From Candidatus Kapaibacterium sp. (lineage in GTDB: Bacteria; Bacteroidota; Ignavibacteria; Kapaibacteriales; UBA961): a stretch of 64,000 nt of DNA. Under the pieces are notes generated by a model, which was given only the letters and a program-made list of their open reading frames with translations, was not told the origin of the DNA and made no database searches. Positions 15,628 to 52,002 of this stretch are shown here, one piece after another. Position numbers and translations under genes: made by a program. The DNA is taken from the NCBI GenBank assembly GCA_017302855.1, contig JAFLBY010000001.1, positions 9,208-73,207 on the forward strand. Reading direction: 5' to 3'. The first letter of the stretch is position 1; the number at the start of each line of letters is the position of its first letter.

Positions 15628-16500
15628 ATGAATATTGAATTTGAACAAAAAGTATTTCCGAATCAAAGACAATCAGAGCAAGAATTGGCTGAAATAGCAT
15701 TGCATATTCGCAGGGATATTATTAAATCACTTGCTCTTGCGCAATCAGGTCACAGCGGAGGGCCTCTTGGTTCCTCTGATATTTTTGCAACAATGTATTT
15801 TGGCGGATATATGCGCTACAAACCCGAAGATATGCAATGGGAAGGGCGCGATAGATTTGTATTAAGTGCTGGTCATATGTGTCCGGTGATGTATGCTACT
15901 TTGGCAAATGCAGGGTGTTTTCCCAAAGCAGAATTAGCAACATTGCGCAAATATAATACACGTTTACAAGGTCACCCGGGACGTGATATGGGATTACCCG
16001 GTGTGGAAACATCTTCCGGGTCTCTCGGTCAAGGAATATCTATTGCTGTCGGTATGGCAATGAGTGATAAATTATTGGATAAAAATGATCGCAGAGTATT
16101 TAGTTTAACCGGCGACGGTGAATTACAAGAAGGAAGTGTGTGGGAAGCTGCTATGGCTGCTTCACATTTTAAATTAGATAATTTCTGCTGGATTATTGAT
16201 AATAATGACTGTCAAATTGACGGTAGAATAAAAGAAGTTTTGGATGTATATCCGATAGATGAAAAATGTAAATCATTCGGGTTTGATACCGTGGTTGTTG
16301 ATGGTCATAATTTTACGGAATTAATGGGTGCTTTTGATAGGTTCTTAGAAAATCAAAAAAATAACACAGGCAAACCAACAGCTATTATTGCAAAAACATA
16401 TATGGGACACGGTGTGTCATTTATGAATGATAATTATAAATGGCATGGTATGCCGCCATCGGTAGAACAAGCTCAACAAGCATTGGCTGAATTGGTGTGA
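15628..16500 (+). CDS. Transketolase, N-terminal (TPP-binding) subunit
   Basis: GHSGGPLGSSDIFATMYF, GHMCPVMYA and GDGELQEG motifs; 290 aa. Confidence 0.85.
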   Translation: MNIEFEQKVFPNQRQSEQELAEIALHIRRDIIKSLALAQSGHSGGPLGSSDIFATMYFGGYMRYKPEDMQWEGRDRFVLSAGHMCPVMYATLANAGCFPKAELATLRKYNTRLQGHPGRDMGLPGVETSSGSLGQGISIAVGMAMSDKLLDKNDRRVFSLTGDGELQEGSVWEAAMAASHFKLDNFCWIIDNNDCQIDGRIKEVLDVYPIDEKCKSFGFDTVVVDGHNFTELMGAFDRFLENQKNNTGKPTAIIAKTYMGHGVSFMNDNYKWHGMPPSVEQAQQALAELV

Positions 16501-17135
16501 CAATGACCATAAATATGAGAAATATCGTATTTGTTTTTGCCGTGATAATGTTGCTATCGTCATGTGCAGAAGAAAAAAAACCGGTGTACAGGGAATCGCC
16601 TGCCGTAGCAATACAGCCGCCCTCATCTATGCAGCAACAAACAACACAAAACAAAGAAAAAACAAAAATTGTTAAAGACGATTTTTCTCCTGTTACGGGA
16701 AAAGAATTGATGAAATGTATGCCTACGGTGGTTGGTGGTGCAAAAATTCTTACACCATCAACGGGAAGATCTGAAACAGCGTATGGTTATGAAACCAGAG
16801 CTGATATAGAAGTGATATATGGCACAGGTGTAACTGTGCGTATAGGAATAACCGATTATGCGGGACATTATTATGCCATACGTGAGCGCTATGAAGTGCC
16901 ACGTTCGGAAATAGGTGTTGAAATGACATCGTTAACATTAGGAGCGGGCAAAGGTTTTCAAATGGTAAACATCTACGAGAAATCAGCATCTATTCGTTTT
17001 GCTGTTTCTCAACGTTTTGGGATAGATATTGAAGTTCTTAAATATACCCAAGATTTTGGCTCACCTTCAAAAGTGCTGGAATTATTGGATTTGCAGTTAT
17101 TAGAAAAAATAGCACAAACAAACGTAAAAAAATAA
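16497..17135 (+). CDS. Lipoprotein of unknown function, inserted between the two transketolase subunit genes
   Basis: Lipobox LLSSC. Start overlaps the tkt-N stop (ATGA). Confidence 0.4.
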   Translation: MTMTINMRNIVFVFAVIMLLSSCAEEKKPVYRESPAVAIQPPSSMQQQTTQNKEKTKIVKDDFSPVTGKELMKCMPTVVGGAKILTPSTGRSETAYGYETRADIEVIYGTGVTVRIGITDYAGHYYAIRERYEVPRSEIGVEMTSLTLGAGKGFQMVNIYEKSASIRFAVSQRFGIDIEVLKYTQDFGSPSKVLELLDLQLLEKIAQTNVKK

Positions 17136-17147
17136 TAAGGAATTTGT

Positions 17148-18152
17148 ATGCAAGAATTAACATTACTCGGTTCTAAACCCACGCGCCACGGTTTTGGTGA
17201 AGGTTTGGTTACACTCGGTGAGAGACATGACAATGTCGTGGTTTTAGGTGGTGATATCACTGGTTCGGTTATGACATCTTTATTTAAAGATAAATTTCCC
17301 GACAGATTTTTTTCTATTGGTATTGCAGAGCAAAATGCAACCACAATAGCCGCCGGTTTGGCTTTAAGCGGAAAGATTCCGTTTTTTGCAAGTTATGGTG
17401 CTTTTTGTGCTTTGCGTAATGCCGATCAATTACGTATTTCCGTTTGCTATAATGAAGCGAATGTGAAAATTGGTGGTGGTCATGCCGGTATTTCCGTTGG
17501 TCCGGACGGTGCCACACACCAGGTTTTGGAAGAGGTTGCGTTTTTGCGTACTTTACCGCACATGACCATGATTGTGCCTTGCGATTATCTGGAAGCAAAA
17601 AAAGCAACGATAGCGATGGGTGAAAAAGTAGGTCCGGCATATATTCGTTTTGGACGCTCACCTGTGCCGCTTTTTACCACAGAGGATACACCCTTTGAAA
17701 TAGGAAAAGCACAAGTGTTCCGCGAAGGCAATGACATTGCTTTGATTGCTAATGGGGCTTTGGTATGGGAATCCATGCTTGCTGCCACAGAATTAGCAAA
17801 AAAAGGAATACAAGCACGTGTTATTAATTGTCCGTCAATTAAACCATTCGATGTAGAAACGGTTGTGAATGCTGCGCGTGAATGCGGTGCTATTGTTACT
17901 GCCGAGGAGCATCAAGTTCATGGTGGGCTTGGAGGAGCTGTTGCAGAAGTCACTGCAAAAAATGCTCCCGTGCCGGTTGAGTTTGTAGGAGTGAGAGATA
18001 GTTTCGGAGGTAGCGGCGAACCGGAAGAGTTGATGGTAAAATTCGGGCTGACATGGAAAGAAATATATGCTTCTGCATTAGTGGCAATGGAACGTCGAGA
18101 CAAAGGAAGCAGCGGCTATCGCCAAGTGAAAGATGTAGAGCAGTTTAGTTAG
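17148..18152 (+). CDS. Transketolase, C-terminal (pyrimidine-binding) subunit
   Basis: 334 aa with a transketolase Pyr domain and C-terminal domain. Confidence 0.85.
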   Translation: MQELTLLGSKPTRHGFGEGLVTLGERHDNVVVLGGDITGSVMTSLFKDKFPDRFFSIGIAEQNATTIAAGLALSGKIPFFASYGAFCALRNADQLRISVCYNEANVKIGGGHAGISVGPDGATHQVLEEVAFLRTLPHMTMIVPCDYLEAKKATIAMGEKVGPAYIRFGRSPVPLFTTEDTPFEIGKAQVFREGNDIALIANGALVWESMLAATELAKKGIQARVINCPSIKPFDVETVVNAARECGAIVTAEEHQVHGGLGGAVAEVTAKNAPVPVEFVGVRDSFGGSGEPEELMVKFGLTWKEIYASALVAMERRDKGSSGYRQVKDVEQFS

Positions 18153-18243: not shown

Positions 18244-19674
18244 TTAAGAAGTTATAGCTATGAGTAAACCATCTAATTTTTGAATAACTTGCTCACGCAA
18301 ATCAAACAATACATCCAATTGAGTTCTTGCTCTATCTACATCACCTCTCTCAACAGCATCCACGATTAATTTCCCTGTTTCATGTACTTTTTTATGGATT
18401 GGCTCAAGACTTGTAAATTCATGATAATTACTATAGCGTTGTGTGCCTATGGTGTAATACCATTTTCCCAAACGACAAGCATAGTGATCAGTTAATTCTT
18501 TGCTATGAACACTTGTTTTTCCTATAACCGAATCGGAAACACGTTTCACCCATGAAATATGGTCCGATTTTGCGATTGAAATTAAAATACTATCAAAATG
18601 GATTTTTGCAAAACATGTGACAGCTTCGGTATTGAAAGATGTCATTTGATCCGAAAGAGAAAATAAATTTTCGAGAGTATGTTTGTGTGATTCAAGTGAG
18701 GTGTCCAAACCAAAAAGTACGCGAGATAAATCTTCTGTGGCTATACTTTGATCTTTAGAAGCGGAACTGATTTGTGCTACGGCGGAACTCGCTTGTTCTG
18801 CAGTTTTGACAGATTCATTGAGAGAACCAACCAGAGTGTCGAAGGCAGAAAGAGTTGAATCCACAGATGAGCCACTTTCTGACACGTATGTTGTAATTGT
18901 AGAAGATTGACTTGAAATTGCTTTAGATGAATCTTGAATTTGTTTGACGGCAAGATTCGTTTTTTCAGATAGTTTTCGAACTTCATCGGCAACAACGGCA
19001 AAACCTCTGCCATGCTCACCCGCACGCGCTGCTTCAATAGCGGCATTAAGAGCGAGTAAGTTCGTTTGCGATGCGATTTGTTGAATTGTTTCCGACAAAT
19101 GATTAATGGACTCGGTCTGGCGCATAAACTCTGACATTTGTTTATCAATTTTTGTAATCGTGGTACGAACTGTGTTGAGCTCTACAGTTAAGTTTTTTAT
19201 GATACCTGCTGCATCAGCTGCTGTTTGTCTTGTGGTTTCTGTTACTTGAGAAGCATGATACGAATGGTTTGCTATTTCTTTGGCTGTTCCTGATAACTCC
19301 TCAACGGATGCTGCAAATCCTCGCATACGGTCAGCATCTTCGCTAAAGTTTTTATTGAAAAGATAACCATGTGTATTGAATTCAGTTAATAAACGTGCTG
19401 TTTGGACAGATCTTTCAATGGATAAAACGGCTGCTTGAATGTAGTTGTCTATAAGGTCTTTTATTGCAAGGGTTTGATTTTTAAGTTGATAGGGTAGTTC
19501 TTCATTGTTAAAAGACTGATCATCAAGATAATTATGAACAATATCCAGAACTGATTGTGCATGGTTATTACTTGTTGTTTCTTGTTGAGCTAAAACAGGT
19601 AAATCGGTTGATGAAGGTGGAATGTGTTCTTGTTCGACTTTTGAGGAAGAGGAACGAAAAAAAGAAAAAGACAT
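18244..19674 (-). CDS. Methyl-accepting chemotaxis protein, apparently cytoplasmic, with a C-terminal CZB (chemoreceptor zinc-binding) domain
   Basis: MCP signalling-domain core [36 protein letters not shown]-terminal H...CRLGKWY...H motif typical of CZB. No obvious TM segments. Confidence 0.8.
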
Positions 19675-19921
19675 AATTTATTGATAAAACTGTGTGACAT
19701 ATACCACAAATTTACATGTAAAAGCGAATAGAAAAAAGAACAAAAGTCAGAAAGAACAAAAGTCAGAATAGTGAACAACATAAAAAGGTAATGTTAAAGA
19801 AAAAGAAGTTTAAATTGTAGTGTTGTCGTAGTTTTGTCGTAGTGGTTAAACGAGAAATGGCAAGTATTTTGTGTTGTTTAGTTCAAAAAATTTATCAATT
19901 ACATACAAAAAAGGAAAGCCT

Positions 19922-20722
19922 ATGAAAAAAATCGTAATGTTCTGTCTGTTCGCTGCTTTAACATCTCTAACTATTCAAACAAGTTCTGCTCAGGCATTGC
20001 GGTTTGGTGCTGCGAAAAAGCTTCAGACAACAACTAACTTTACCACCATCGTTGATAATCTCACTATGGAATGTTGGGTACGATGGAATGGTACTCCGGG
20101 AGGAATTCGATTGCTTGTCTATAATGGTGATCCATCGACGAGTGGTTATGGATACTATATTAATACAAATACAGCTCAAATCCATTTTCTTGCCGGTGGA
20201 GTCATTGATGTTGGTACAGGATACAATTTGCCCGTAAATATATGGACACACCTTGCTTTGCGCCGAACAGCAGGGACATGGCATTTAATTGTTAATGGTG
20301 TCCAACAAGGGTGGACAGCCAGTAACGCACCAAATGTACCCGGTGCTCCGGGTGCTACTGTAGGAATTGATTTTCCGGGAGATATAGATGAATTGCGTGT
20401 GTGGAATATAGCTCTACCAACAGCAACCATCCTCAATAATTTTCAACAAGCTGCGAATTCTTCTCATCCAAATTTTGCAAATCTCGTGGCATATTATCCT
20501 ATGAATGAAGGTACGGGACAAACAACAGCGGATGCCATTGGAGGAAACACAATGACACTTGGCGCAACAAACGCTGTTGGGGCAGATGACCCCACGTGGA
20601 TTGCAGACTCTTCCCCTATTACTGTCCCAACTTTAGGCGAATGGGCAATGATTATATTTGCCGTACTGCTTGTTGGTACAGCTTGGTATAAAATGAGAGA
20701 AAAACAAGCGTTAACTGCATAA
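19922..20722 (+). CDS. Secreted LamG-like (concanavalin A-like lectin/glucanase, Laminin_G_3) protein with an IPTL-CTERM-like C-terminal sorting signal
   Basis: Signal peptide MKKIVMFCLFAALTSLTIQTSSAQA. LamG_3-like core (LTMECWVRWNG...WTHLALRR...DIDELRVWN). C-terminus VPTLGEWAMIIFAVLLVGTAWYKMREKQ is a motif, then a TM helix, then basic residues. Confidence 0.6.
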   Translation: MKKIVMFCLFAALTSLTIQTSSAQALRFGAAKKLQTTTNFTTIVDNLTMECWVRWNGTPGGIRLLVYNGDPSTSGYGYYINTNTAQIHFLAGGVIDVGTGYNLPVNIWTHLALRRTAGTWHLIVNGVQQGWTASNAPNVPGAPGATVGIDFPGDIDELRVWNIALPTATILNNFQQAANSSHPNFANLVAYYPMNEGTGQTTADAIGGNTMTLGATNAVGADDPTWIADSSPITVPTLGEWAMIIFAVLLVGTAWYKMREKQALTA

Positions 20723-20810
20723 GTTGAATACTATTCCTCATAGTAAAAAGGTATAGAAATTTAATTCTATACCTTTTTTATTTTGAAACAGTAATACATA
20801 GCTTAATTAT

Positions 20811-21380
20811 ATGGCAAATATCAAAAAAACAAACAAACCGGCTCAATCAATACAAGGAAAAATTATAGAGATAGTACAAAAAAACAAATCCCAATTGTTT
20901 TTTATCTTGACTGTAGGGATTGTTATGGTTATCTATTATAGTATTACGGGAACTCAGTGGTTCCGTCAAGATATGTTGCCAAGTTATCTACAAATACTTG
21001 CCCGGATTACTTCTGCATTGTTAAATATCATGGGAGAAAAGGTTTCTATAATACGCACAGTGGTCCAATCTCCTTCTTTTTCTATGGATATTGCGTATGG
21101 ATGTGATGCCCTTGAGCCGATAACTCTATTTTCTGTTGTTGTGCTATGTTTTCCTGCAAAAATATATGGACGCATTATGGGTGTAATATCAGGTGTCTGT
21201 TTGCTGTTTACACTGAATATTATTCGCTTGCTATCGCTTTATTATGCCGGTACATATTCACAGGAATTGTTTGAGTTATTCCATATTGAGATATGGCAAC
21301 CTGTTTTTATTATATGTGCTTTGGTGATGTTTTTGTTGTACGTGGGAATTATAAGAAAAAAAGGATGGAGTAATGTTTAA
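20811..21380 (+). CDS. Small polytopic membrane protein, possibly an exosortase/archaeosortase-family transpeptidase (short XrtF-like form)
   Basis: 189 aa with ~5 TM helices. Contains Cys in AYGCDALEP, followed ~40 residues later by NIIR inside a TM helix. This resembles the Cys...N-x-x-R arrangement of exosortases; inference only. Confidence 0.3.
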   Translation: MANIKKTNKPAQSIQGKIIEIVQKNKSQLFFILTVGIVMVIYYSITGTQWFRQDMLPSYLQILARITSALLNIMGEKVSIIRTVVQSPSFSMDIAYGCDALEPITLFSVVVLCFPAKIYGRIMGVISGVCLLFTLNIIRLLSLYYAGTYSQELFELFHIEIWQPVFIICALVMFLLYVGIIRKKGWSNV

Positions 21381-22017
21381 GACTATAGGGATATTTGTCG
21401 GAAAATTCTTTGCATGGTATGTATTTTTTATATTGATATTGTTTTTAGGATTTAACAAGCCATTTGCGGGGATGTTTCGATCAGTGGGAACAATGGTTTT
21501 TAAGACAATGTGGCATAATGTGGATGTGCAATATAAACCATCATATTCTGCACAAGGGATAGCGGCTCGTTTGAGGGATAACGATACACAAATCCAAATA
21601 ACAAATCACAATCTTCGTTTGCCCAATGGTTATCCACCAATGGGAAGTGTGGGGACTAATTCACGTTTACAAGCATATTTGCCAATAGCAATGATGATTG
21701 CTTTATCATTGTCTTTGCCTTTGGCTTTAAAAAGAAGTATGTTTATTATGGTAATAGGATTGGTGCTTCTTTGTATGTGGATATTGTTCTTACTTGGTTT
21801 TGTTGTTGTAGTATATGGTGAATTATCCGGTATTGGTTGGTATGGTTTTTCTCAAGAGTCGAAACAAAGTATGCAGGAAATATTAGAAATTATTCTTATG
21901 AATCAAATAGGTTTATCATATGTAATTCCTTTTGTACTGTGGATCATTATCATAGTATGTACAGGTGATTATCGTCAAATAGTAATGTTGTTGACGGAGA
22001 AAGAGAAAAGTATATAG
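21373..22017 (+). CDS. Polytopic membrane protein, possible partner of the upstream exosortase-like protein
   Basis: 214 aa with 4-5 TM helices; start overlaps the previous gene. Confidence 0.3.
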   Translation: MFKTIGIFVGKFFAWYVFFILILFLGFNKPFAGMFRSVGTMVFKTMWHNVDVQYKPSYSAQGIAARLRDNDTQIQITNHNLRLPNGYPPMGSVGTNSRLQAYLPIAMMIALSLSLPLALKRSMFIMVIGLVLLCMWILFLLGFVVVVYGELSGIGWYGFSQESKQSMQEILEIILMNQIGLSYVIPFVLWIIIIVCTGDYRQIVMLLTEKEKSI

Positions 22018-27942: not shown

Positions 27943-28797
27943 TTACTTTTGCAAATTTTGGGAGTATTGGTCAAGGAAATGACGTTCGGATTCAGTGAGG
28001 GCATCGTATCCAACTTCAATCATTCTGTCAAGGATGAGATTTAATTGTTCTTCATCCGTAAAATCTTCTTCTCTAAATTCTGTGAACATTGATGGTGTTT
28101 TGGATGATATCGTGCCGGTAATGCTAACAGGTTCAAGCTCTTCATCGGGCGGAGGTGCAATGACCGGTAATGTTGTTGATTGAATAATGCTTTGCTTTTT
28201 TACGGATGAGCGTTTATTAGACCAACTCAAAGCTATGCCGAGGCAACCACCGATAATACTTTGTGAGAACTGACGATAGAACAAAAATGATTCGGATGTC
28301 AGAAGATAAGCACCGGAGAATATAAGTCCTATGATTGCTAAAAGTGTAGCAAACACGGGAACAGGTATGCGATAACCGACAAACACTTCTGCAATGTGAC
28401 GCGGAAATAAAGCCACATACATTCCTAAAGTGAAAAATGAAATAAGCGTGGTGCCATTAAGTGGATTGGGGTCAGAAGGAAGAAATAACATAAAGCCCAA
28501 TGCTTGCAACACTGTCAGCATGGTTAACAAGAGAGGAAACTTGAAGCGAGGGAATACGGTTTCAACCTTGTCGCCGGCGAAAAACATGACAGACATAAAC
28601 ACAAGCAATTCACCAACAGATTGTCCGGAAAAAGGATAGGTGAATAATCGCCAAATGTCATAATGATGGAGAACCGCATCGGAACTGAGTTGAAGCAGAG
28701 GAACAATGTGAGTGCCTTTGCTAATAATGTCGAGCAAAAACGTCATCCCGACAATGAGAAGGAGTTTATGCGAAAACGATATACCGATGGGTTTCAT
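27943..28797 (-). CDS. Rhomboid-like polytopic membrane protein; the catalytic GxSG motif is not evident
   Basis: YDIWRLFTYPF motif typical of rhomboids and 6 TM helices. The expected Ser position reads LNGTTLISF. Soluble acidic C-terminal tail. Confidence 0.35.
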   Translation of the reverse strand: MKPIGISFSHKLLLIVGMTFLLDIISKGTHIVPLLQLSSDAVLHHYDIWRLFTYPFSGQSVGELLVFMSVMFFAGDKVETVFPRFKFPLLLTMLTVLQALGFMLFLPSDPNPLNGTTLISFFTLGMYVALFPRHIAEVFVGYRIPVPVFATLLAIIGLIFSGAYLLTSESFLFYRQFSQSIIGGCLGIALSWSNKRSSVKKQSIIQSTTLPVIAPPPDEELEPVSITGTISSKTPSMFTEFREEDFTDEEQLNLILDRMIEVGYDALTESERHFLDQYSQNLQK

Positions 28798-39994: not shown

Positions 39995-40030
39995 ATAGAG
40001 ATACTTGCCTATTTCTTCAGAAAAACTCTT

Positions 40031-40068
40031 GCTGCTTTTTGTGGCAAGAGTTTTTTTGTTTTTCTGCT
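40031..40068 (+). terminator. Rho-independent terminator after the GT2 gene
   Basis: ACTCTTGC-loop-GCAAGAGT followed by TTTTTTTGTTTTT. Confidence 0.45.
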
Positions 40069-40243
40069 TCATTATTTTCATTGTGATGATGCCATTTGTC
40101 GGGATGAAAAAATCCCGTCATTATGTCATCATACGAGAAAAAATACATCCACCCCGTCCTTCGGACACTCCCTCAAAACGGGAATTTTGAAATTCAGCGC
40201 GTCATGGAATCCCGCAGGGATGACATTATACTAGCAAATCTTT

Positions 40244-40273
40244 CCAAAAAACCTTCCCCTCCATCGGAGGGGT
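40244..40273 (-). terminator. Rho-independent terminator (minus strand) downstream of the CTD remnant and STAND gene
   Basis: CCCCTCC-gat-GGAGGGG hairpin followed on the minus strand by GGTTTTTTGG. Lies in a locally GC-rich segment. Confidence 0.4.
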
Positions 40274-40336
40274 GTCCGCAGGACGGGGTGGGTTCATTCC
40301 ATCAGACGCAGTCTGACGGGGTGGACGCATTTATCA

Positions 40337-40567
40337 CTACCTCACCACCATAAACAGAGCTTTTTGTCCTGTGGCGGGAATGCGTGCACAATACATACCT
40401 GTCTGCGATCTGCTTATGTCTATCGAATGTTCATATCCCTGATACATAAGCGAACCCTGCATATCGGCAATGAAGACCAAGGCATTATCTGTACCGGTAG
40501 GCGTGTGGTTGTGATGTGTTGGTATTTTAAACTTCTTGGTCATGGAGTTTGTTGGAATTAATTTCAA
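40337..40567 (-). pseudogene. Orphan T9SS C-terminal sorting-domain remnant (3' fragment of a disrupted secreted-protein gene)
   Basis: The 76-aa ORF ...ALVFIADMQGSLMYQGYEHSIDISRSQTGMYCARIPATGQKALFMVVR matches the T9SS CTD pattern. It has no upstream cargo domain, and its 5' end overlaps the STAND gene stop in another frame. Confidence 0.35.
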
Positions 40568-43500
40568 ACATCGATAACTCCAAGAAATTTATAAAACTTT
40601 CATAGAATGAATAGAAATTAGTTTCTATTTTATAATCATTTATAAGTTTCAGTGTGTTTCCGGGAAAAAAATACAAACTATGAAAATAGTTGATAGTGTT
40701 CACTTTTCCAACAATAGCATTAAATAAAATTGGTTTTATGCTTCTTTTAACTTCTTTTTTGGGAAACAACTGAAATAGTTTTAAATCCGACAACGAAGAG
40801 TGTAATCCATCAGAATAAGATGCTACTTCATCTGGCTTTAATTTCAGTTCGGAAATTATTTTTTTGTCATTTATAGTAAGTATTCCGTTGTTTAATCGTG
40901 ATTGACTATCTTGTCTGTATGAGTTGTTGTGATCTGAATATTCAGTATAAGGAATTCCAATGTTCTTAAGAGACTTTGTTTTTTTATTCCGTTTTGAAAT
41001 ACGAACTCTGAATTTGTTAACTTCTAATATGTCTCTAAACTGATTACATCTATTTGAACTGAGAATGTTTTGAATATCATTAAAATCTATTTGCCTATCA
41101 TATATGTTATGTTGAAGTAATCTTTCTATTGATAGATTAAAAATACTATCTGGAAAACAGTTAATATGATTTGTAGGTAAACTAAACCAAGATACTTCTA
41201 ATTTGTTAATATCAAAATACTTTACCAAGATGTCAATTATACTCGTGGAATGTTGTTCAATATATTCTTCTAAAAGATGACGTACTCCCTTTTCTGATAA
41301 AGTCTGAATAGATGCTATTAGTTTAATAGATTCTATTTCTTTAACAAGACCCTTTTCTTCAAAAACTGAAAGTATGGTGGGGATAAATAGAACAGAATAA
41401 TCCTTTCTTTGATAGTATTTTGTCCAAAAAGTAGAAATGCTCGAGATATCAATGGTTTTATTTAAATGCAAGTTCAGACGAATATAATTTAATATTTCAA
41501 TCCATAAGTCAAAACTACCCAATTGACTGTTTTTAATGATAAAGTCTGCTAGTGATAAATTTAAGTAATCGTTTGTTCTTGCAACATGGCCAAGTGCCAG
41601 TATGTTGCGTCTCGCATCTTTTAATATAGACTTTGCAAATGCAGCGGGAATACGTTTCTTTTCAAGAAATTCTCGTAAATATAATAAGGACTCTTCATCT
41701 TCAGTATAAAAGTATTTATTAATAGTCATTTTTAAGTCTAAATAATCAGATTGTAGTTTTTCGTGGATGAATAAATTTTCCAACACAAAGGTCATTTTTT
41801 CGACGAATTCATAGTTGTCGTTAGATTCTATCAAAGCTTCAATTTCTATATTAGATAGTGCAGATTTGTGTGCGTTAAAAAAGGTATCTTCTTTTGTTGT
41901 TTCGTCTAATAAATTTTCAAAAAAACTGTTTGTATTATAATGGTCATTACTAGAAAGATTAAGCAACAATGAGATATTCCCCGTTTTAATAAAGTAAAAC
42001 ATACCAAAAAGATAGTCTGAGCTTGTAAAGTCTTTCTCTGTATATCCATGAAATAACAATGATTTTATATAGGTGTATAAAAATTTATTGTTAGTTGAAA
42101 TATAATCCCTTGATATTATATTGATAATTAATGATAAATCATAATAATCTTTCACATCTAAATCATTGGGTGAAAGTTCAAACAATGATCCTCTAAGTTG
42201 TCCATAGAATGATTGGATAGCCTCAAAATCTACAGTACCACTAACAAGAACTTTAAACTCAGAAATGTTTGAGAATCTGAGAATGATTTCTCGTTTCATT
42301 TCCATATCTAGATAGAAGAAATCAAACCTTGTAAGAAATGCAACTTCTGAGTTAAGGATTGAGTTGTAAACAATCATTTTTACTGTCTTTTGTCGTTCAG
42401 AATAATCAATGTTTTGGTTACGTAAATAAGTATTAAAGCTGTCGTGCAATAAAGAAACTCTGTTTAGCTTCTTTTCAAATAAATAAGGGTACTCACTTAT
42501 AAATTCTGAAACACTAACTCCTAATTCTTTACCTAAAAATTTTTCTATTTCATGGTGCATGATAAAAGAACGACAACAAAGAAACAATGTCAATAAAGAT
42601 TTTGTGTTTACCTTGTCTTTAAAAATTTCATCATAATACTCGTCTATAGTCTTTAACGTATTTAATTCAGGTAGATTGTTGTGTTCTTTATAATGTTCTG
42701 CCAAATATTTGACTAAAATAGGATAACCATCTGTAATCGAATATATGCGACTACAAACATCGTAATCGGTAATGTGAAAAAGTTTATCAAGAACCTTTTT
42801 TGTTTGCTCCTTGTTCCAATTAATAAGTTCATGTTTACTCCACTCCCATTGATGTTTCAATGGTCTGGTTAAAACTATTGTTTTACACTTTGTTTGTAAT
42901 TTTTGGATAAAGTCAATGATTTTTTTTAACTCTTTGCTATCGTAGTTTTCAACGTGGTCAATCCCGTCAATTATGACTATTTTGTTTACCTCCCATAATT
43001 TTGATAAAACTTCATTCTCATTCCTGTTAACTTGATCATTAAACAGTTTCTTCGAAAAGTCAAAGATAAAATTTGAAAACTTTAGCCTTTGATTATACTC
43101 TTTATCTTGGCTTGAAATCCAAAATCTGTAAATTATATTGTTTGGATATTCTTGAGTCAGACTATTGACAAGATGGCTTTTGCCAACTCCAGGTTTGCCT
43201 TCTATTACTATAATATTTTCAACAAATAGATGATTTCTTCCGACATCAATTGTTTGTTCGGTCAAATTGGTATCGAAAACGAGAATTGTTGGCAAATCCT
43301 TTCTCGCTATTCTAAATTTCCGCTCATCTAAACATGAATTAAAAAATCTGTTTATAATAAGTTCCCTTTCTTGGTTCAAATTGTATAAATTGGAAATTCT
43401 CTCATCAACATTTTCTCTGTTTAAAGAAACAATGTAAACATTGTTTGAAATATATGCAGGAATTCCGAATATTTCACAATTTGGCGAAATCTCGATTTGT

Positions 43501-43781
43501 TTAAAAAATATAATATTAGTGAATTGTGACAATAAATGTTTTTTGTTTTTTATAATTACTGAGTTTTCTTTGAATCGAAGAGAGTTAAGAGAAATGTCAT
43601 CAATATCTTTAATCTGGATGCAAAATTTTTCGTTAGTAGATGTTACTATTAAATCATCAAAGTGATTGTTAGCGTTTACTTCCATTTCAATTGAATCAAT
43701 ACTACGTTCAACATCCATTTTTGCTAAAAACAAAGATGTTATTTGTTTTTGATATGTGTATCCTGTATAAGCGTTTTTCAT
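40527..43781 (-). CDS. STAND-class P-loop NTPase (NACHT/NB-ARC-like), Avs-like candidate antiviral sensor: N-terminal PD-(D/E)xK-like domain plus long C-terminal helical-repeat region
   Basis: Walker A GKPGVGKSHLVNSL, Walker B KIVIIDGIDHV and TIVLTRP motifs. ~190-aa N-terminal domain with FDDLIV...EKFCIQIK (D...QxK). ~700-aa alpha-helical C-terminal half. Confidence 0.7.
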   Translation of the reverse strand: MKNAYTGYTYQKQITSLFLAKMDVERSIDSIEMEVNANNHFDDLIVTSTNEKFCIQIKDIDDISLNSLRFKENSVIIKNKKHLLSQFTNIIFFKQIEISPNCEIFGIPAYISNNVYIVSLNRENVDERISNLYNLNQERELIINRFFNSCLDERKFRIARKDLPTILVFDTNLTEQTIDVGRNHLFVENIIVIEGKPGVGKSHLVNSLTQEYPNNIIYRFWISSQDKEYNQRLKFSNFIFDFSKKLFNDQVNRNENEVLSKLWEVNKIVIIDGIDHVENYDSKELKKIIDFIQKLQTKCKTIVLTRPLKHQWEWSKHELINWNKEQTKKVLDKLFHITDYDVCSRIYSITDGYPILVKYLAEHYKEHNNLPELNTLKTIDEYYDEIFKDKVNTKSLLTLFLCCRSFIMHHEIEKFLGKELGVSVSEFISEYPYLFEKKLNRVSLLHDSFNTYLRNQNIDYSERQKTVKMIVYNSILNSEVAFLTRFDFFYLDMEMKREIILRFSNISEFKVLVSGTVDFEAIQSFYGQLRGSLFELSPNDLDVKDYYDLSLIINIISRDYISTNNKFLYTYIKSLLFHGYTEKDFTSSDYLFGMFYFIKTGNISLLLNLSSNDHYNTNSFFENLLDETTKEDTFFNAHKSALSNIEIEALIESNDNYEFVEKMTFVLENLFIHEKLQSDYLDLKMTINKYFYTEDEESLLYLREFLEKKRIPAAFAKSILKDARRNILALGHVARTNDYLNLSLADFIIKNSQLGSFDLWIEILNYIRLNLHLNKTIDISSISTFWTKYYQRKDYSVLFIPTILSVFEEKGLVKEIESIKLIASIQTLSEKGVRHLLEEYIEQHSTSIIDILVKYFDINKLEVSWFSLPTNHINCFPDSIFNLSIERLLQHNIYDRQIDFNDIQNILSSNRCNQFRDILEVNKFRVRISKRNKKTKSLKNIGIPYTEYSDHNNSYRQDSQSRLNNGILTINDKKIISELKLKPDEVASYSDGLHSSLSDLKLFQLFPKKEVKRSIKPILFNAIVGKVNTINYFHSLYFFPGNTLKLINDYKIETNFYSFYESFINFLELSMFEINSNKLHDQEV

Positions 43782-44061
43782 TAATTACAAATAATATTAA
43801 CTTCTTTCATTACTTAAATTTCTTCTTCGGTCAGTTCGTAAAGTTTCTGAACTAATGTGTCAATTTGGTCTGTTTAAGTCATCTGTGCTTCCGATGGCGG
43901 TAGATCTCACACAGCGAAGTAAACCACCGTTTGTTTCTCCAAAACTACAAAACTTTGAAAACTCAGACAAATATGAAGTTCTCATATTTCATTATGATAT
44001 AGCGTATCCTTGCTTTGCAATTCAATGACTGTCACCCTTTTCATACAAGAGGAGTGTTGAA

Positions 44062-47969: not shown

Positions 47970-49034
47970 TTAGGCTTCAATCAATTCATTTACTTCTTCA
48001 TTCATTACTTCTTCATTCATTACTTCTTCATTCATTACTTCTTCATATACACAACTGTTTACCAAAGCATTTGCAATGTGCCACATTAAGACAGGTGGAA
48101 CAGCATTGCCAATTGCTCTGTATTGTCTATTCTCTGAAACACTGTCTAACGTAAATGTTAGCGGAAAAGATTGAATGTTTGCTGCTTCTCTTGGTGTAAA
48201 TCTTCTGTAACGTTCACCAACCATTAATACAGGGTCCGTTCCATTCAAACTGACTTTTGCAAGATGTGCACTGATTGTGTTACAGGGCTGTTCTAAATCT
48301 TGTACTCGTCCTTTGTTCATCTTTTCTCTTACTCGCAACATTCCATCAATGGCTCTTTGGCTGAAAAACCATTTTTCATCTTTGTGAGCTTCTTTATCAA
48401 TAACCTGTTTTAATTTTACTTTTGAACCGTTCAATGTGTTTGGTCTTGGAAATCTAAAATTAAAATAATCGTCAAAATCTCTGAAGCCAACAATAAAAAT
48501 GCGTTCGCGTTTTTGAGGAATACCAAATTCTGACGCATTTAACAGCTTAAAATGAATGTGATAACCTGCTTTCTCAAATTCGTTTACAATCATAGGGAGT
48601 GCTTTTCCTTTGTTTGCAGAAAGTAAACCTTTAACATTTTCTCCAATGAAAAAACGTGGCTGTTTTTCTTTCAGAATTTTTACCATCTCAAAAAACAATT
48701 TTCCTCTATCGTCTTTGTAGCCTAATCTGGGTGGGTTCTGTGCACTGATAGAAAATGATTGACAAGGAAAACCACCTAACAGAATATCGTGGTCAGGAAC
48801 TTCGTTTGGTATGATAGCTCTAACGTCTTTTATCTCACATTTATGCTCAAAATTATCGTTGTAAATTTTTGTTGAGTAACTATCGTTATCGACGGCATAC
48901 ACAACCTCAAAAGGTAAGGCAGCGTAATGATTGTCAAGAAAATCGAAATTTCCTTGAATACCTAAATCCATTCCTCCACAACCACAGAAAAGAGATGAGA
49001 CCTTTAATTTGTTATTTCCAGCAGTTTGTGCCAT
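47970..49034 (-). CDS. DNA (cytosine-5)-methyltransferase (M2 of the RM operon) with a C-terminal EEVMN peptide-repeat tail
   Basis: Motif I LFCGCGGMDLG, motif IV GGFPCQSFS, ENV motif. C-terminus (EEVMN)x3-4. Confidence 0.85.
   Translation of the reverse strand: MAQTAGNNKLKVSSLFCGCGGMDLGIQGNFDFLDNHYAALPFEVVYAVDNDSYSTKIYNDNFEHKCEIKDVRAIIPNEVPDHDILLGGFPCQSFSISAQNPPRLGYKDDRGKLFFEMVKILKEKQPRFFIGENVKGLLSANKGKALPMIVNEFEKAGYHIHFKLLNASEFGIPQKRERIFIVGFRDFDDYFNFRFPRPNTLNGSKVKLKQVIDKEAHKDEKWFFSQRAIDGMLRVREKMNKGRVQDLEQPCNTISAHLAKVSLNGTDPVLMVGERYRRFTPREAANIQSFPLTFTLDSVSENRQYRAIGNAVPPVLMWHIANALVNSCVYEEVMNEEVMNEEVMNEEVNELIEA
47985..48050. repeat. 15-bp tandem repeat (ttcattacttcttca, 3 perfect copies plus 1 variant) at the 3' end of the methyltransferase gene
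   Basis: Seen directly; in-frame, 5 aa per unit. Confidence 0.6.
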
Positions 49035-50446
49035 TGTCCTGATATTTTAGAAAATTCAACAACTAAGTTTTTATCAACTTTTAAATTACCTAATTTGAAT
49101 TGTTTAAATGGGTTTTGAATAATAAAGATGTTCTTGCTCTTATCGTTAATTACCAAGTAATAGACAAAATAACTGTCCCCTAATGTTTCTGCACTGTCCC
49201 ATTCGTTAGGCGTGAGTTTGAAACGATTATTGTTAATTGCTTTTCGTGATTTAGTTGTTTTTACTTCAATATATCGTTTTTTTTGAGGTATTTCGATACT
49301 TTGTAGGTCATATCCAACACCAAGAGGTGTCGGGATTTTGTTTATTAAGTGTTGACGGTTTGAACCACCTCTTGTTCTCAAATATTCATGTGCTAAAATT
49401 AACGTTTCACCATAATCCCCAAATATTTTTGTAGGTACTTTTCTATCTCCTTTGATGCGTGAGTAATACTCTTGAATAAGAGTAGATATGTTCTGTACTT
49501 CTTGTTCTTCTAAATGAGGGGCAAACGCTTCAATATTATCAAAGTTATTTACATAATCAAACCAAAGCTCTTCTAGTTTTCCAATTTCAGAATTTTTTGT
49601 TTCTTCTTCTAAATTGTAATATCTGTCATACTCACCAAACCATGTATTGTTTTGCAAGTGAAAGTTAATTGCTTCTATGTTTTTGTGATTCAGATAATAA
49701 TAATAACCTGTTCCTTTATGGTGCAAAAGATTGGCTAAAACCATGTAATCCAAAATGTCGCCAGCGTACCGATTAGTATCACCTTTTGATGGAAATTCGC
49801 CTGTTCGTTCGTTTCTTAATGCTTCGTAATTATATTCGTATTCCACTTTGTCTTTTCTGTTCTCTAGAATGAGATTTACAACTTCGTTTGCTTGCCTTTT
49901 TCCTGTTGTAACTCGAAGGTCGAAGTAAGCGCATTGCGTGAGTTCTTCTACTGTTAAGCTAAATGGTTTTCCTGTAATTTTTTCTCCCTCAACAAATAAA
50001 TTAAGTATGAATTGACAAGGTCTAAATTTTATACCAGCTTCAATTTGCTTAATTGTATTTTGAGATTTAATGTGTCCACCTGGGTATTGAAATGAAAACA
50101 AAAAGTAATTAAAAAATTCATCCAAATATTGATTGTTTGCAAGCCTCTTTGCTGTTAAGCCGGGTTCGGAGAAACCGTTCTTTTCTTGAATAAAACCAAA
50201 CAACGCTGAAATTTCAGTCCGCCAATTATCTATTGTCTTTTGTGCTGCTGTTGTGTTTTTTTTAAAACCAAACAATACCTTGTTTAATTCATTTTTAAAA
50301 TTGTTTTTTGATAAAACGGGCATTTCTGAAATTGTTGTTGCTACATACAATAAAACTTCTTCTACGTCATTTTTGAAACGTGGTCTTACATGATGTAATC
50401 TAAAAAAATACTCATCAGGTATTCTGTATGATTTTATTCTGCTCAT
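49004..50446 (-). CDS. Putative type II restriction endonuclease (C-terminal DUF3883-like PD-(D/E)xK domain)
   Basis: 480 aa. C-terminal ...GYDLQ...KKRYIEVKTTKS...FKLTPNEW...YFVYYLV is a D...EVK nuclease core. Sits between two m5C methyltransferase genes with overlapping start/stop. Confidence 0.5.
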   Translation of the reverse strand: MSRIKSYRIPDEYFFRLHHVRPRFKNDVEEVLLYVATTISEMPVLSKNNFKNELNKVLFGFKKNTTAAQKTIDNWRTEISALFGFIQEKNGFSEPGLTAKRLANNQYLDEFFNYFLFSFQYPGGHIKSQNTIKQIEAGIKFRPCQFILNLFVEGEKITGKPFSLTVEELTQCAYFDLRVTTGKRQANEVVNLILENRKDKVEYEYNYEALRNERTGEFPSKGDTNRYAGDILDYMVLANLLHHKGTGYYYYLNHKNIEAINFHLQNNTWFGEYDRYYNLEEETKNSEIGKLEELWFDYVNNFDNIEAFAPHLEEQEVQNISTLIQEYYSRIKGDRKVPTKIFGDYGETLILAHEYLRTRGGSNRQHLINKIPTPLGVGYDLQSIEIPQKKRYIEVKTTKSRKAINNNRFKLTPNEWDSAETLGDSYFVYYLVINDKSKNIFIIQNPFKQFKLGNLKVDKNLVVEFSKISGQWHKLLEITN

Positions 50447-51480
50447 AAGTATTTCATAATTTCATTTGCTAACACAGCTGCTAATATTGGAGGAACAGCA
50501 TTGCCTACCTGTTTGTATTGGCTCGTTTTACTTCCTAAAAAAATGAATGAATCTGGAAAGGATTGTATTCTCGCACTTTCTCTAACAGTAGGCACACGAT
50601 TGTATTTGTAATGAAAATGATGTCTGTGTCCTGTGTCAATAGTAAAACTTGGCTTCTTGCTGTTTAGTCTCGTCCAAGCAATATTTACATTCCTTGTTTT
50701 TCGTAATTCTTTAGGCAAGTCTTTATAGTTTCCGCCATCGGGAACTAATGAAATAATATGTGTTGTTTGCTCACTATGGTTAGTTGTTTCGTGATTGTAA
50801 ATACCCTTTGACCCTTCTCTAATTAATCTTTGATAATGAGATTTAGGTTTAGTTGTATATTTTGTCCCGTTTTCTAACGAATTTTTAGGCAAATCTGAAA
50901 TTGCATCTTTCGTATTTATAGGGGTTTTAGTTGTTGGTTCTGGGAAAACAAACTCTTTGTTGCTCTTTGTTCCAATAAAGAAAGCACGTTTTCTATTCTG
51001 CGGAACTCCATAATCAGAGGCTAATAAAATTTTGTAAACTACGGTGTAACCAAGTTTTTCAAAATCACTGAGAATTGTCTCTTTTACAATACCTTTTCCC
51101 ATAGAAATAATGTTTGGCACATTTTCCATTACAAACGCCTTAGGCTTGTAAAAACTAACAAAACTCAAAAATGATTTGTAAAGTTGATTGCGCTCGTCAT
51201 CAATTATTCTTTTTCCTGCAATAGAAAAACCTTGACAAGGAGGACCTCCAATAATCACATCTATACTTTTTATTCCTGTTTTTTTTGAAATTTCTTTCGC
51301 TGTCTCCGTAAATAAATCGGCTACAATTCCTTTTGCATTTTTGTGAGTGTTTTCAAAAGTTACAATCGCATCTTTCCAATTGTCAATTCCCAAAAGTACA
51401 TCATAGCCAGCTTCGATGAATCCATAAGAAAGTCCACCGCAGCCACAAAACAAGTCTATTACTGTTGGCTTCTTTTTCAT
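50443..51480 (-). CDS. DNA (cytosine-5)-methyltransferase (M1 of the RM operon)
   Basis: IDLFCGCGGLSYGF, GGPPCQGFSIAGKR and ENVPN motifs. Confidence 0.85.
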   Translation of the reverse strand: MKKKPTVIDLFCGCGGLSYGFIEAGYDVLLGIDNWKDAIVTFENTHKNAKGIVADLFTETAKEISKKTGIKSIDVIIGGPPCQGFSIAGKRIIDDERNQLYKSFLSFVSFYKPKAFVMENVPNIISMGKGIVKETILSDFEKLGYTVVYKILLASDYGVPQNRKRAFFIGTKSNKEFVFPEPTTKTPINTKDAISDLPKNSLENGTKYTTKPKSHYQRLIREGSKGIYNHETTNHSEQTTHIISLVPDGGNYKDLPKELRKTRNVNIAWTRLNSKKPSFTIDTGHRHHFHYKYNRVPTVRESARIQSFPDSFIFLGSKTSQYKQVGNAVPPILAAVLANEIMKYL

Positions 51481-51499
51481 TTTCTAACTTGATAATGTC

Positions 51500-51808
51500 T
51501 CATTTTGTGTTCATATTCTTCAAATAGTTTACCTTTTCTTCTGCAACCACCAATGTTTCGGTAGGGCAGTTATAAGCATACATCTTTTTTGCAAATTGAT
51601 CTCCAAAATATTCAATCTTTAATCTTTCAATATCAAGACTAAAAACTATTGCTAATTTGGTTAATCGCTTTTCGTCAAACTCTCTCTTCCCATTTTCGAT
51701 TTTGCTAAGATTTGCAGAATCAAGGTCAAGACGGAATGCAAGTTGCGTTAAAGTCAAGCCATTGTCTGTTCTTAGTTTCTTGATGTATTCACCAAAAGTT
51801 GCCTTCAT
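51500..51808 (-). CDS. XRE-family HTH regulator, candidate RM controller (C) protein
   Basis: FGEYIKKLRTDNGLTLTQLAFRLDLDSANLSKIENGKR HTH_3. First gene of the C-M-R-M operon. Confidence 0.6.
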   Translation of the reverse strand: MKATFGEYIKKLRTDNGLTLTQLAFRLDLDSANLSKIENGKREFDEKRLTKLAIVFSLDIERLKIEYFGDQFAKKMYAYNCPTETLVVAEEKVNYLKNMNTK

Positions 51809-51826
51809 AAGATTATACCTCGAAAC

Positions 51827-51843
51827 TTGTCAATCATTGACAA
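51827..51843. promoter_or_regulatory. 17-bp palindrome TTGTCAAT-C-ATTGACAA 19 bp upstream of the controller gene (candidate C-box operator)
   Basis: Seen directly; perfect inverted repeat around a single central base. Confidence 0.45.
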
Positions 51844-52002
51844 ATTTAACAATAGTTTTTGGTTAAACAATCTCTATTGATTCTGCTCTCCTGTGTTCTA
51901 TCACCTATGTTTGTCTAACTGTGCTGTTCTTTCGGATGACCAATCTATTCATATTATACCCCTCAATAACCATTTGCCCCAGAAAGCGGCTCATTTCTAT
52001 TA

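Follow-up and report, generated by a model that had tools for sequence, protein, structure and literature searches.

A probable, divergent XrtH-type sorting module for an IPTL-CTERM protein in a Kapaibacterium-like member of the Bacteroidota

We analyzed a stretch of 64,000 nucleotides from Candidatus Kapaibacterium sp. (contig JAFLBY010000001.1; the whole stretch is called the window here). Our subject is a group of three open reading frames (ORFs) which, according to ORF calling, occupy positions 19922-22017 on the same strand. They encode a secreted LamG protein with an IPTL-CTERM tail (the cargo), an exosortase-like enzyme and a second membrane protein (the partner). We consider it quite probable that the locus is a module for protein sorting of the XrtH type, in a Kapaibacterium-like bacterium of the Bacteroidota, because of the matches to family models, the invariant Cys, Arg and His residues of the enzyme and the gene order, which recurs across phyla. 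The pairing of tail and enzyme is already known from comparative genomics and the module is not of a new kind. Two aspects are modestly new: the divergent Kapaibacterium branch, with enzyme and partner outside the curated cutoffs, and the quantitative neighbourhood evidence across phyla for the pairing of tail and enzyme. The size of the partner family, and its apparent origin as a paralogue of XrtH, may be new. The features of the locus are as follows.

19922-20722, plus strand: cargo gene, 266 amino acids from ATG, secreted Laminin_G_3 protein with IPTL-CTERM tail
19922-19996, plus strand: predicted Sec signal peptide (cargo residues 1-25, MKKIVMFCLFAALTSLTIQTSSAQA), cleavage after A-Q-A
20624-20722, plus strand: IPTL-CTERM sorting signal of the cargo, consisting of V-P-T-L-G-E-W-A, transmembrane helix MIIFAVLLVGTAWY, KMREK, four residues and stop
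20745-20788, plus strand: intrinsic-terminator-like hairpin and T-run between the cargo and enzyme genes
20811-21380, plus strand: XrtH-like exosortase candidate (the enzyme), 189 amino acids, polytopic
21102-21104, 21225-21227 and 21282-21284, plus strand: catalytic candidates of the enzyme (Cys98, Arg139 and His158, respectively)
21373-22017, plus strand: membrane partner, 214 amino acids, start overlapping the enzyme gene by 8 nt

The enzyme scored above the cutoffs of two superfamily models, namely the TIGR04178 signature (47.9 bits, cutoff 23) and PF09721 (29.4 bits, cutoff 25.7). Its top subfamily was exosortase H (XrtH, TIGR04177) with 77.5 bits, 23 bits ahead of the next one. The scores for other subfamilies were 54 bits for XrtX, 49 for XrtM and 43 for ArtB, and XrtF (TIGR04128) was ranked sixth with 36.1 bits against a cutoff of 90. 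The enzyme carries the motifs AYGC98DALEP and N136-I-I-R139, as well as His158. A word-indexed protein search identified its close relatives in four clusters of 56-98% identity. When the PDB sequences were searched with an exosortase profile, no matches were obtained at E <= 1.

For a broader comparison we assembled a set of 91 loci. Eighty of them were recovered by scanning GTDB genomes and JGI metagenomes with patterns based on the conserved stretches GCDALEPI and HxExWQxxF, and 11 were added by contig look-ups. The loci originated from Kapaibacterium-like bacteria, Phycisphaerae, Lentisphaerales, Chitinophagales, Saprospiraceae and metagenomes. Clustering them by single linkage with a threshold of 70% identity gave 42 lineages, and 41 lineage representatives were aligned. 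In this alignment G97, C98, N136, R139 and H158 were invariant. A triad of Cys, Arg and His has been proposed as catalytic for the superfamily (10.1101/2023.06.07.544157), and the enzyme is a candidate polytopic membrane cysteine protease/transpeptidase. Sixteen of the 41 representatives reached E <= 3e-24 on TIGR04177, which corresponds approximately to the 86-bit cutoff of that model, with individual examples at 90-105 bits. Members of the enzyme clade thus score on both sides of the XrtH cutoff, with the Kapaibacterium branch as a divergent XrtH system at the periphery of the clade.

The end of the cargo gene lies 89 bp ahead of the enzyme gene. An alternative start, GTG at 19871, would give a protein of 283 amino acids. 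Residues 35-170 of the cargo matched PF13385 (Laminin_G_3, concanavalin A-like lectin/glucanase) at 59 bits. Read by eye from the translation, the N-terminus (MKKIVMFCLFAALTSLTIQTSSAQA/L) appears to be a Sec signal peptide; its Cys8 is preceded by V-M-F, which does not fit a lipobox. The protein ends with ...SSPITVPTLGEWAMIIFAVLLVGTAWYKMREKQALTA. Besides the signal peptide, the cargo has the tripartite architecture of a sorting tail, that is VPTLGEWA, the helix MIIFAVLLVGTAWY and the basic KMREK. The Kyte-Doolittle analysis placed the transmembrane segment at residues 250-268 of the ORF, numbered from the GTG at 19871. The tail (residues 235-259 of 266) scored above both curated cutoffs, with 30.8 bits on TIGR04174 (cutoff 20.5) and 21.4 bits on PF18203 (cutoff 20.8). 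Further, residues 231-262 matched positions 33-64 of the NF033207 profile, "midcut-by-XrtH protein" (E = 2e-5). Only one ORF within the 64-kb window carried an IPTL-type tail.

The hairpin between the cargo and enzyme genes (20745-20778) has a 14-bp stem and a 6-nt loop and is followed by a T-run. Its folding energy was -18.2 kcal/mol (z = -5.85 in comparison with shuffled sequences). The stem was kept in two relatives at 72% identity (L007 and L009); the loop was altered there and the flanking intergenic DNA had diverged. The hairpin probably acts as an attenuator, with cargo transcripts outnumbering enzyme transcripts. An initial annotation of this stretch had proposed a LamG-like secreted protein with a signal peptide and a tail of the IPTL-CTERM class (motif, transmembrane helix, basic cluster), a terminator, and a 189-residue polytopic protein of the exosortase/archaeosortase family with a Cys and N-I-I-R. 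All of these proposals agree with the present results, which add His158 to the residues of the enzyme. The cargo C-terminus quoted in that annotation contained the correct motif, whereas the actual end of the protein is four residues longer.

We then asked how often such tails occur beside related exosortases. The pattern P-[TAS]-[LIVMF]-[SGTNAD]-[EQDNPH]-[WFY]-[GASMT], followed by a hydrophobic stretch and a basic residue, gave 54 matches in the 3190 ORFs of the 91 loci, compared with 2 in reversed decoys. At least one IPTL-type tail gene was present at the locus in 17 of the 31 lineages with enough flanking sequence. In most of them this gene shares the strand of the exosortase gene, and its end lies upstream of the latter by a few hundred bases at most; several other lineages have it in convergent orientation, just downstream of the partner. 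The Pfam IPTL-CTERM model recognized 8 of 10 sampled tails at E <= 0.001 (6 of them above the gathering cutoff), and NCBIfam models matched tails in L014 and L016. From 38 distinct tails beside related exosortases we obtained the consensus [IV]-P-[TA]-[VLM]-[SG]-[EQ]-W-[GA]-[LM]-I, followed by hydrophobic residues that include a conserved Gly and, after these, by RR. The tail of the window fits it with minor departures. The passenger domains varied and included LamG (window), metalloprotease-like (L016), subtilisin/mycosin-like (L014), beta-propeller (L059) and DUF7901 (L083) domains. Since unrelated passengers share a common tail, the tail behaves like a sorting signal.

The layout of cargo, enzyme and partner was common to loci above the XrtH cutoff (L022, L023, L034, L038, L066 and L074) and below it (L054, L059, L070, L083 and the window). 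Neighbours above the cutoff scored 98.9 (L022), 92.9 (L023), 96.0 (L034) and 104.7 bits (L066) on TIGR04177, and the window enzyme shared 38% identity with those of L022 and L023 over the best aligned segment. In Kapaibacterium-like relatives at 72% enzyme identity, the order of cargo, hairpin, enzyme and partner was kept.

Two variants of the cargo were observed in the surveyed loci. The first is a tandem array of four genes whose (V/I)PAVSEWGLIALT...RRR tails are almost the same; it stands upstream of the 104.7-bit XrtH in L066 (1116-4586), a multi-cargo form of the module, and is also present in L067. The second variant is "mid-cut" cargo, found in L014 (5652-9854), L017 (8047-9900), L038 (4547-5662) and L070 (7222-8400). 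In these proteins the IPTL motif, the transmembrane helix and the basic cluster lie approximately 105-112 residues ahead of the C-terminus. We read the tails of L014 and L017, and in both of them two extra hydrophobic segments follow. Cleavage of mid-cut proteins would leave a small membrane protein. They weakly resemble the midcut-by-XrtH family of NCBIfam.

The partner gene overlaps the enzyme gene by 8 nt (ATGTTTAA). The protein consists of an N-terminal transmembrane helix, a loop of approximately 70 residues with RDNDTQ and PPMGSV.TNSR, and three further transmembrane helices; these two motifs are conserved, as are YGELSG.GW, MNQIG.SYV and GDYR. It had no Pfam match and no NCBIfam match at E <= 1. 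We built a partner profile from seven homologues and searched 1.84 billion representative proteins with it. This search yielded 475 clusters at E <= 1e-3, nearly all of them 190-240 amino acids long and matched over the full length. When we scanned 149 sequences (148 best matches of the profile and the window protein), 25 of them matched NF041730, "exosortase H-associated membrane protein", with a best E of 1.5e-7. The consensus of the partner family obtained 23.8 bits on this model (cutoff 35) over positions 3-181 of 184. None of the family members tested reached the NF041730 cutoff, and the best E for one standing beside an above-cutoff XrtH was 3.1e-7. NF041730 covers only a small part of the partner family, which comprises at least 475 representative clusters at 50% identity. 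At the surveyed loci, 39 of the 42 lineages had a match to the partner-family profile in the ORF that comes directly after the exosortase gene, and L014 was the only adequately flanked locus without a partner.

We compared the partner and XrtH alignments with hhalign. The first pair of alignments gave a probability of 92.8% (E = 4e-7, 41 columns), and alignments built from the loci gave 96.5% (E = 7e-10, 112 columns); reversed-sequence controls gave E values of 0.01-0.04. The alignment takes in the N-terminal helix, the loop and the transmembrane hairpin that in XrtH runs from Cys to Arg. Where XrtH has Cys98 and Arg139, the partner has hydrophobic residues that vary (Leu99 and Leu140 in the window), and the His region was unaligned. 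Because of this profile homology and the hydrophobic residues in place of Cys and Arg, the partner has the appearance of an XrtH paralogue without catalytic activity. It most likely works with XrtH as a non-catalytic subunit, for substrate docking or as a scaffold. The broader proposal is that the whole XrtH-associated family (at least 475 clusters) is an ancient dead duplicate of XrtH and forms with it an obligate enzyme/pseudo-enzyme heteromer that sorts IPTL-CTERM proteins. We make it tentatively and would sooner expect it to fail than to hold. If it were true, short exosortases would act as two-gene units and not as single enzymes. The AlphaFold2 model of the partner, calculated with the alignment of seven sequences, had a pLDDT of 50.5 and a pTM of 0.25, values too low for a comparison of folds.

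Among the metagenome proteins there was one of 375 amino acids (P0188) in which an XrtH-like domain (10-143) is joined to a partner (154-341). It is a singleton on one contig of 4987 bp. We gave it little weight, as it may be an artefact: the 8-nt gene overlap lets one frameshift error fuse both genes.

Several observations weigh against the assignment to XrtH. The enzyme, with 77.5 bits on TIGR04177, stays below the curated cutoff of 86, and the partner of the window has no direct match to NF041730 (cutoff 35 bits). The tail is slightly atypical: it reads G-E-W-A and not S-E-W-G, the conserved Gly comes two positions earlier, and KMREK is weak in comparison with RRR. Loci L010, L011 and L013, at 56-59% identity, keep the enzyme-partner pair without an IPTL-tail gene within 10 kb, which indicates that the pair is not strictly bound to the LamG cargo. 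In the literature searched we found no experimental study of XrtH. Finally, our results show the family assignments, the conserved residues and the recurring gene order, whereas the complex and the attenuation are inferred, as are cleavage, its site and the acceptor, these three wholly by analogy. The only experimental mention of the signal that we found is the IPTL-CTERM tail on the S-layer protein of Methylomirabilis lanthanidiphila (PMC8671808), and a role in surface display would agree with this.

Some of these observations would also fit a permanent, uncleaved anchor, in which case the C-terminal helix of the LamG protein would simply stay in place and the exosortase-like pair would have other substrates or another role. 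The departures of the tail from the consensus, the terminator-like hairpin that divides cargo from enzyme, and the pairs without an adjacent IPTL-tail gene (L010, L011, L013, L015, L018 and L019) all point in this direction. However, the tail passes the cutoffs of two curated sorting-signal models, at least 17 lineages of several phyla have such tails next to this exosortase clade (with 2 decoy matches in 3190), and the tail stays constant while the passenger changes from LamG to metalloprotease-like, subtilisin-like, beta-propeller and DUF7901 domains. We therefore regard a permanent anchor as quite unlikely. A much closer question is whether the LamG protein is merely adjacent to an XrtH-like enzyme that serves IPTL-CTERM proteins scattered over the genome. 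Tandem arrays of two to four IPTL-tail genes (L016, L033, L036 and L066), lineages that retain the enzyme-partner pair without adjacent cargo, and the many-to-one character of other exosortase systems (10.1101/2023.06.07.544157) argue for it. A dedicated cargo fits better with the single tail in the 64-kb window and with the order of cargo, hairpin and enzyme kept at 72% identity. A word-based protein search with the last 47 residues of the cargo also gave no further candidates. In our estimate, the many-to-one arrangement comes not far short of an even chance.

The initial annotation had favoured another enzyme, a short XrtF-like exosortase with an XrtF-associated partner, which would be the first enzyme for an orphan IPTL-CTERM signal. 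The enzyme is indeed short (189 amino acids) like XrtF, the host belongs to the Bacteroidota, and a partner gene with an overlapping start lies downstream. Nevertheless, XrtF is only the sixth-ranked subfamily, with 36.1 bits on TIGR04128 against a cutoff of 90, compared with 77.5 bits for XrtH. The 8-nt overlap of the 214-residue partner was confirmed; its identity as an XrtF-associated protein was not, as it has no NCBIfam match at E <= 1. The statement that no dedicated enzyme had been assigned to IPTL-CTERM proved incorrect, because NCBIfam contains curated models for XrtH (TIGR04177), the XrtH-associated protein (NF041730) and midcut-by-XrtH proteins (NF033207), and the signal class is thus no orphan. 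The XrtF explanation is extremely improbable. The proposed pairing of cargo and sortase itself is supported by the family models and by the gene order across phyla; it is not the first pairing for this signal class, since it was already known.

We also considered a rhomboid encoded in the window (27943-28797, minus strand) as the processing enzyme. This candidate was dropped, because rhombosortases are tied to GlyGly-CTERM (10.1101/2023.06.07.544157) and the adjacency of the exosortase is far stronger. The gene, which encodes a rhomboid and DUF6576 membrane protein, is found in L010 (11242-12102), L011 (2879-3739) and L013 (8892-9752) as well. Its synteny with the XrtH pair extends to every Kapaibacterium-like locus, and in the more distant branch the gene converges directly on that of the partner.

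Taking the locus as an XrtH-type module, we propose the following course of events by analogy with the exosortase/archaeosortase family (10.1101/2023.06.07.544157). Sec would export the LamG lectin-like protein through its N-terminal signal peptide, and the single transmembrane helix of the IPTL-CTERM tail would tether it in the inner membrane. The XrtH-like enzyme, with Cys98, Arg139 and His158 in or near the membrane, would recognise VPTLGEW at the periplasmic end of this helix. The tail would be removed via an acyl-enzyme intermediate at Cys98, and the mature LamG protein would be freed or passed to an acceptor and displayed at the cell surface. The partner probably assists substrate docking or stabilises the enzyme, and the conserved hairpin probably allows cargo mRNA to exceed enzyme mRNA.

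The module of the window corresponds part by part to the XrtH/IPTL-CTERM/XrtH-associated system described in TIGRFAMs and NCBIfam. It shares with the XrtH (TIGR04177) and IPTL-CTERM (TIGR04174, PF18203) families a polytopic core of approximately 160 amino acids, the Cys/Arg/His triad, the IPTL-type cargo immediately upstream and the membrane partner immediately downstream. It differs from them in the score of the enzyme, which is below 86 bits, and in the G-E-W-A motif with a weak basic cluster. TIGR04177 is reported to be specific for IPTLxxWG-CTERM. Proteins of NF041730 resemble the partner in length (approximately 200 amino acids), in topology (an N-terminal transmembrane helix, a loop and three transmembrane helices) and in being encoded directly after XrtH. 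The window partner had no match to this model at E <= 1; it is homologous to it at the level of the family and is probably the version of the XrtH-associated membrane protein in this lineage. XrtF of Flavobacteriia (TIGR04128) is similarly a short exosortase of Bacteroidota with a gene for a small membrane partner; it differs in that the window enzyme obtains 36 bits of the 90 needed on its model, and in that the window clade is tied to IPTL tails. XrtF is not known to have an assigned sorting signal.

Wider resemblance exists to the PEP-CTERM/XrtA and PGF-CTERM/ArtA systems, in which a tripartite C-terminal signal abuts the membrane and is processed by a Cys/Arg/His enzyme that is itself deeply embedded in the membrane (10.1101/2023.06.07.544157). 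The motif, transmembrane helix and basic cluster of the tail and the enzyme superfamily are shared with these systems. In contrast, the motif of the window belongs to the IPTLxEWG class and not to PEP or PGF, the enzyme is short and does not have the N-terminal helices of the 8-TM (eight transmembrane helices) XrtA, and there is a separate, apparently paralogous partner protein. Unlike them, the module is also located outside any exopolysaccharide locus. A link to a polysaccharide locus was not evident in the window, where the closest genes for glycosyltransferase and sugar-nucleotide functions begin at 38.5 kb, at least 16 kb away.

In public databases the cargo is identical to MBN8572298.1, named "IPTL-CTERM sorting domain-containing protein" by NCBI, and the enzyme is identical to MBN8572299.1, named "archaeosortase/exosortase family protein". 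The latter name is generic because 77.5 bits fall under the XrtH cutoff of 86. The partner belongs to the 90% cluster of MBN8572300.1 (the representative is 99% identical), which is named "hypothetical protein". The matching proteins come from metagenome-assembled genomes labelled Candidatus Kapabacteria, Kapaibacterium sp. or Ignavibacteria bacterium, and GCA_051715385.1 carries the same locus. Kapaibacterium is placed in the Bacteroidota. [quoted passage not shown]

Our reading assigns three generically named or unnamed Kapaibacterium-like genes to a defined sorting system. A large share of both families lies beyond the curated models for XrtH and the XrtH-associated protein, and the cutoffs of these models could be revisited. 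A lineage of Bacteroidota that uses the T9SS would have a second, unrelated route for sorting of surface proteins. The apparent paralogy of XrtH and its partner provides a testable idea on the mechanism of short exosortases, and compact loci with a single cargo, such as that of the window, would be suited to reconstitution.

The BspA-type gene lies between the partner gene and a Rieske gene, on the minus strand. Its product has 1289 amino acids, with an LRR_5 match of 933 bits and a T9SS C-terminal sorting domain. The relative L007, at 72% identity, has a different ORF of 494 amino acids at this position, and the place beside the XrtH module looks like a variable slot for surface proteins. On the other side, just upstream of the cargo gene and divergent from it, there is a gene for a methyl-accepting chemotaxis protein that carries a zinc-binding CZB domain (18244-19674, minus strand); in L009 it is reduced to a CZB fragment of 102 amino acids. 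Further upstream, an ORF of 212 amino acids (16497-17135, plus strand) with a lipoprotein-like N-terminus (...VIMLLSSC) and no Pfam match stands inside a split transketolase, whose halves lie at 15628-16500 and 17148-18152. This ORF was kept in relatives.

We observed two stretches of low GC content in the window (40000-44000 and 48000-52000), with values of 0.29-0.34 in comparison with approximately 0.38 elsewhere. The former contains a gene for a protein of 1084 amino acids (40527-43781, minus strand) with a borderline match to AAA_18 only, and the latter contains a gene for a BpuJI-like restriction endonuclease (49004-50446, minus strand). The two stretches are probably acquired defence or restriction-modification islands.

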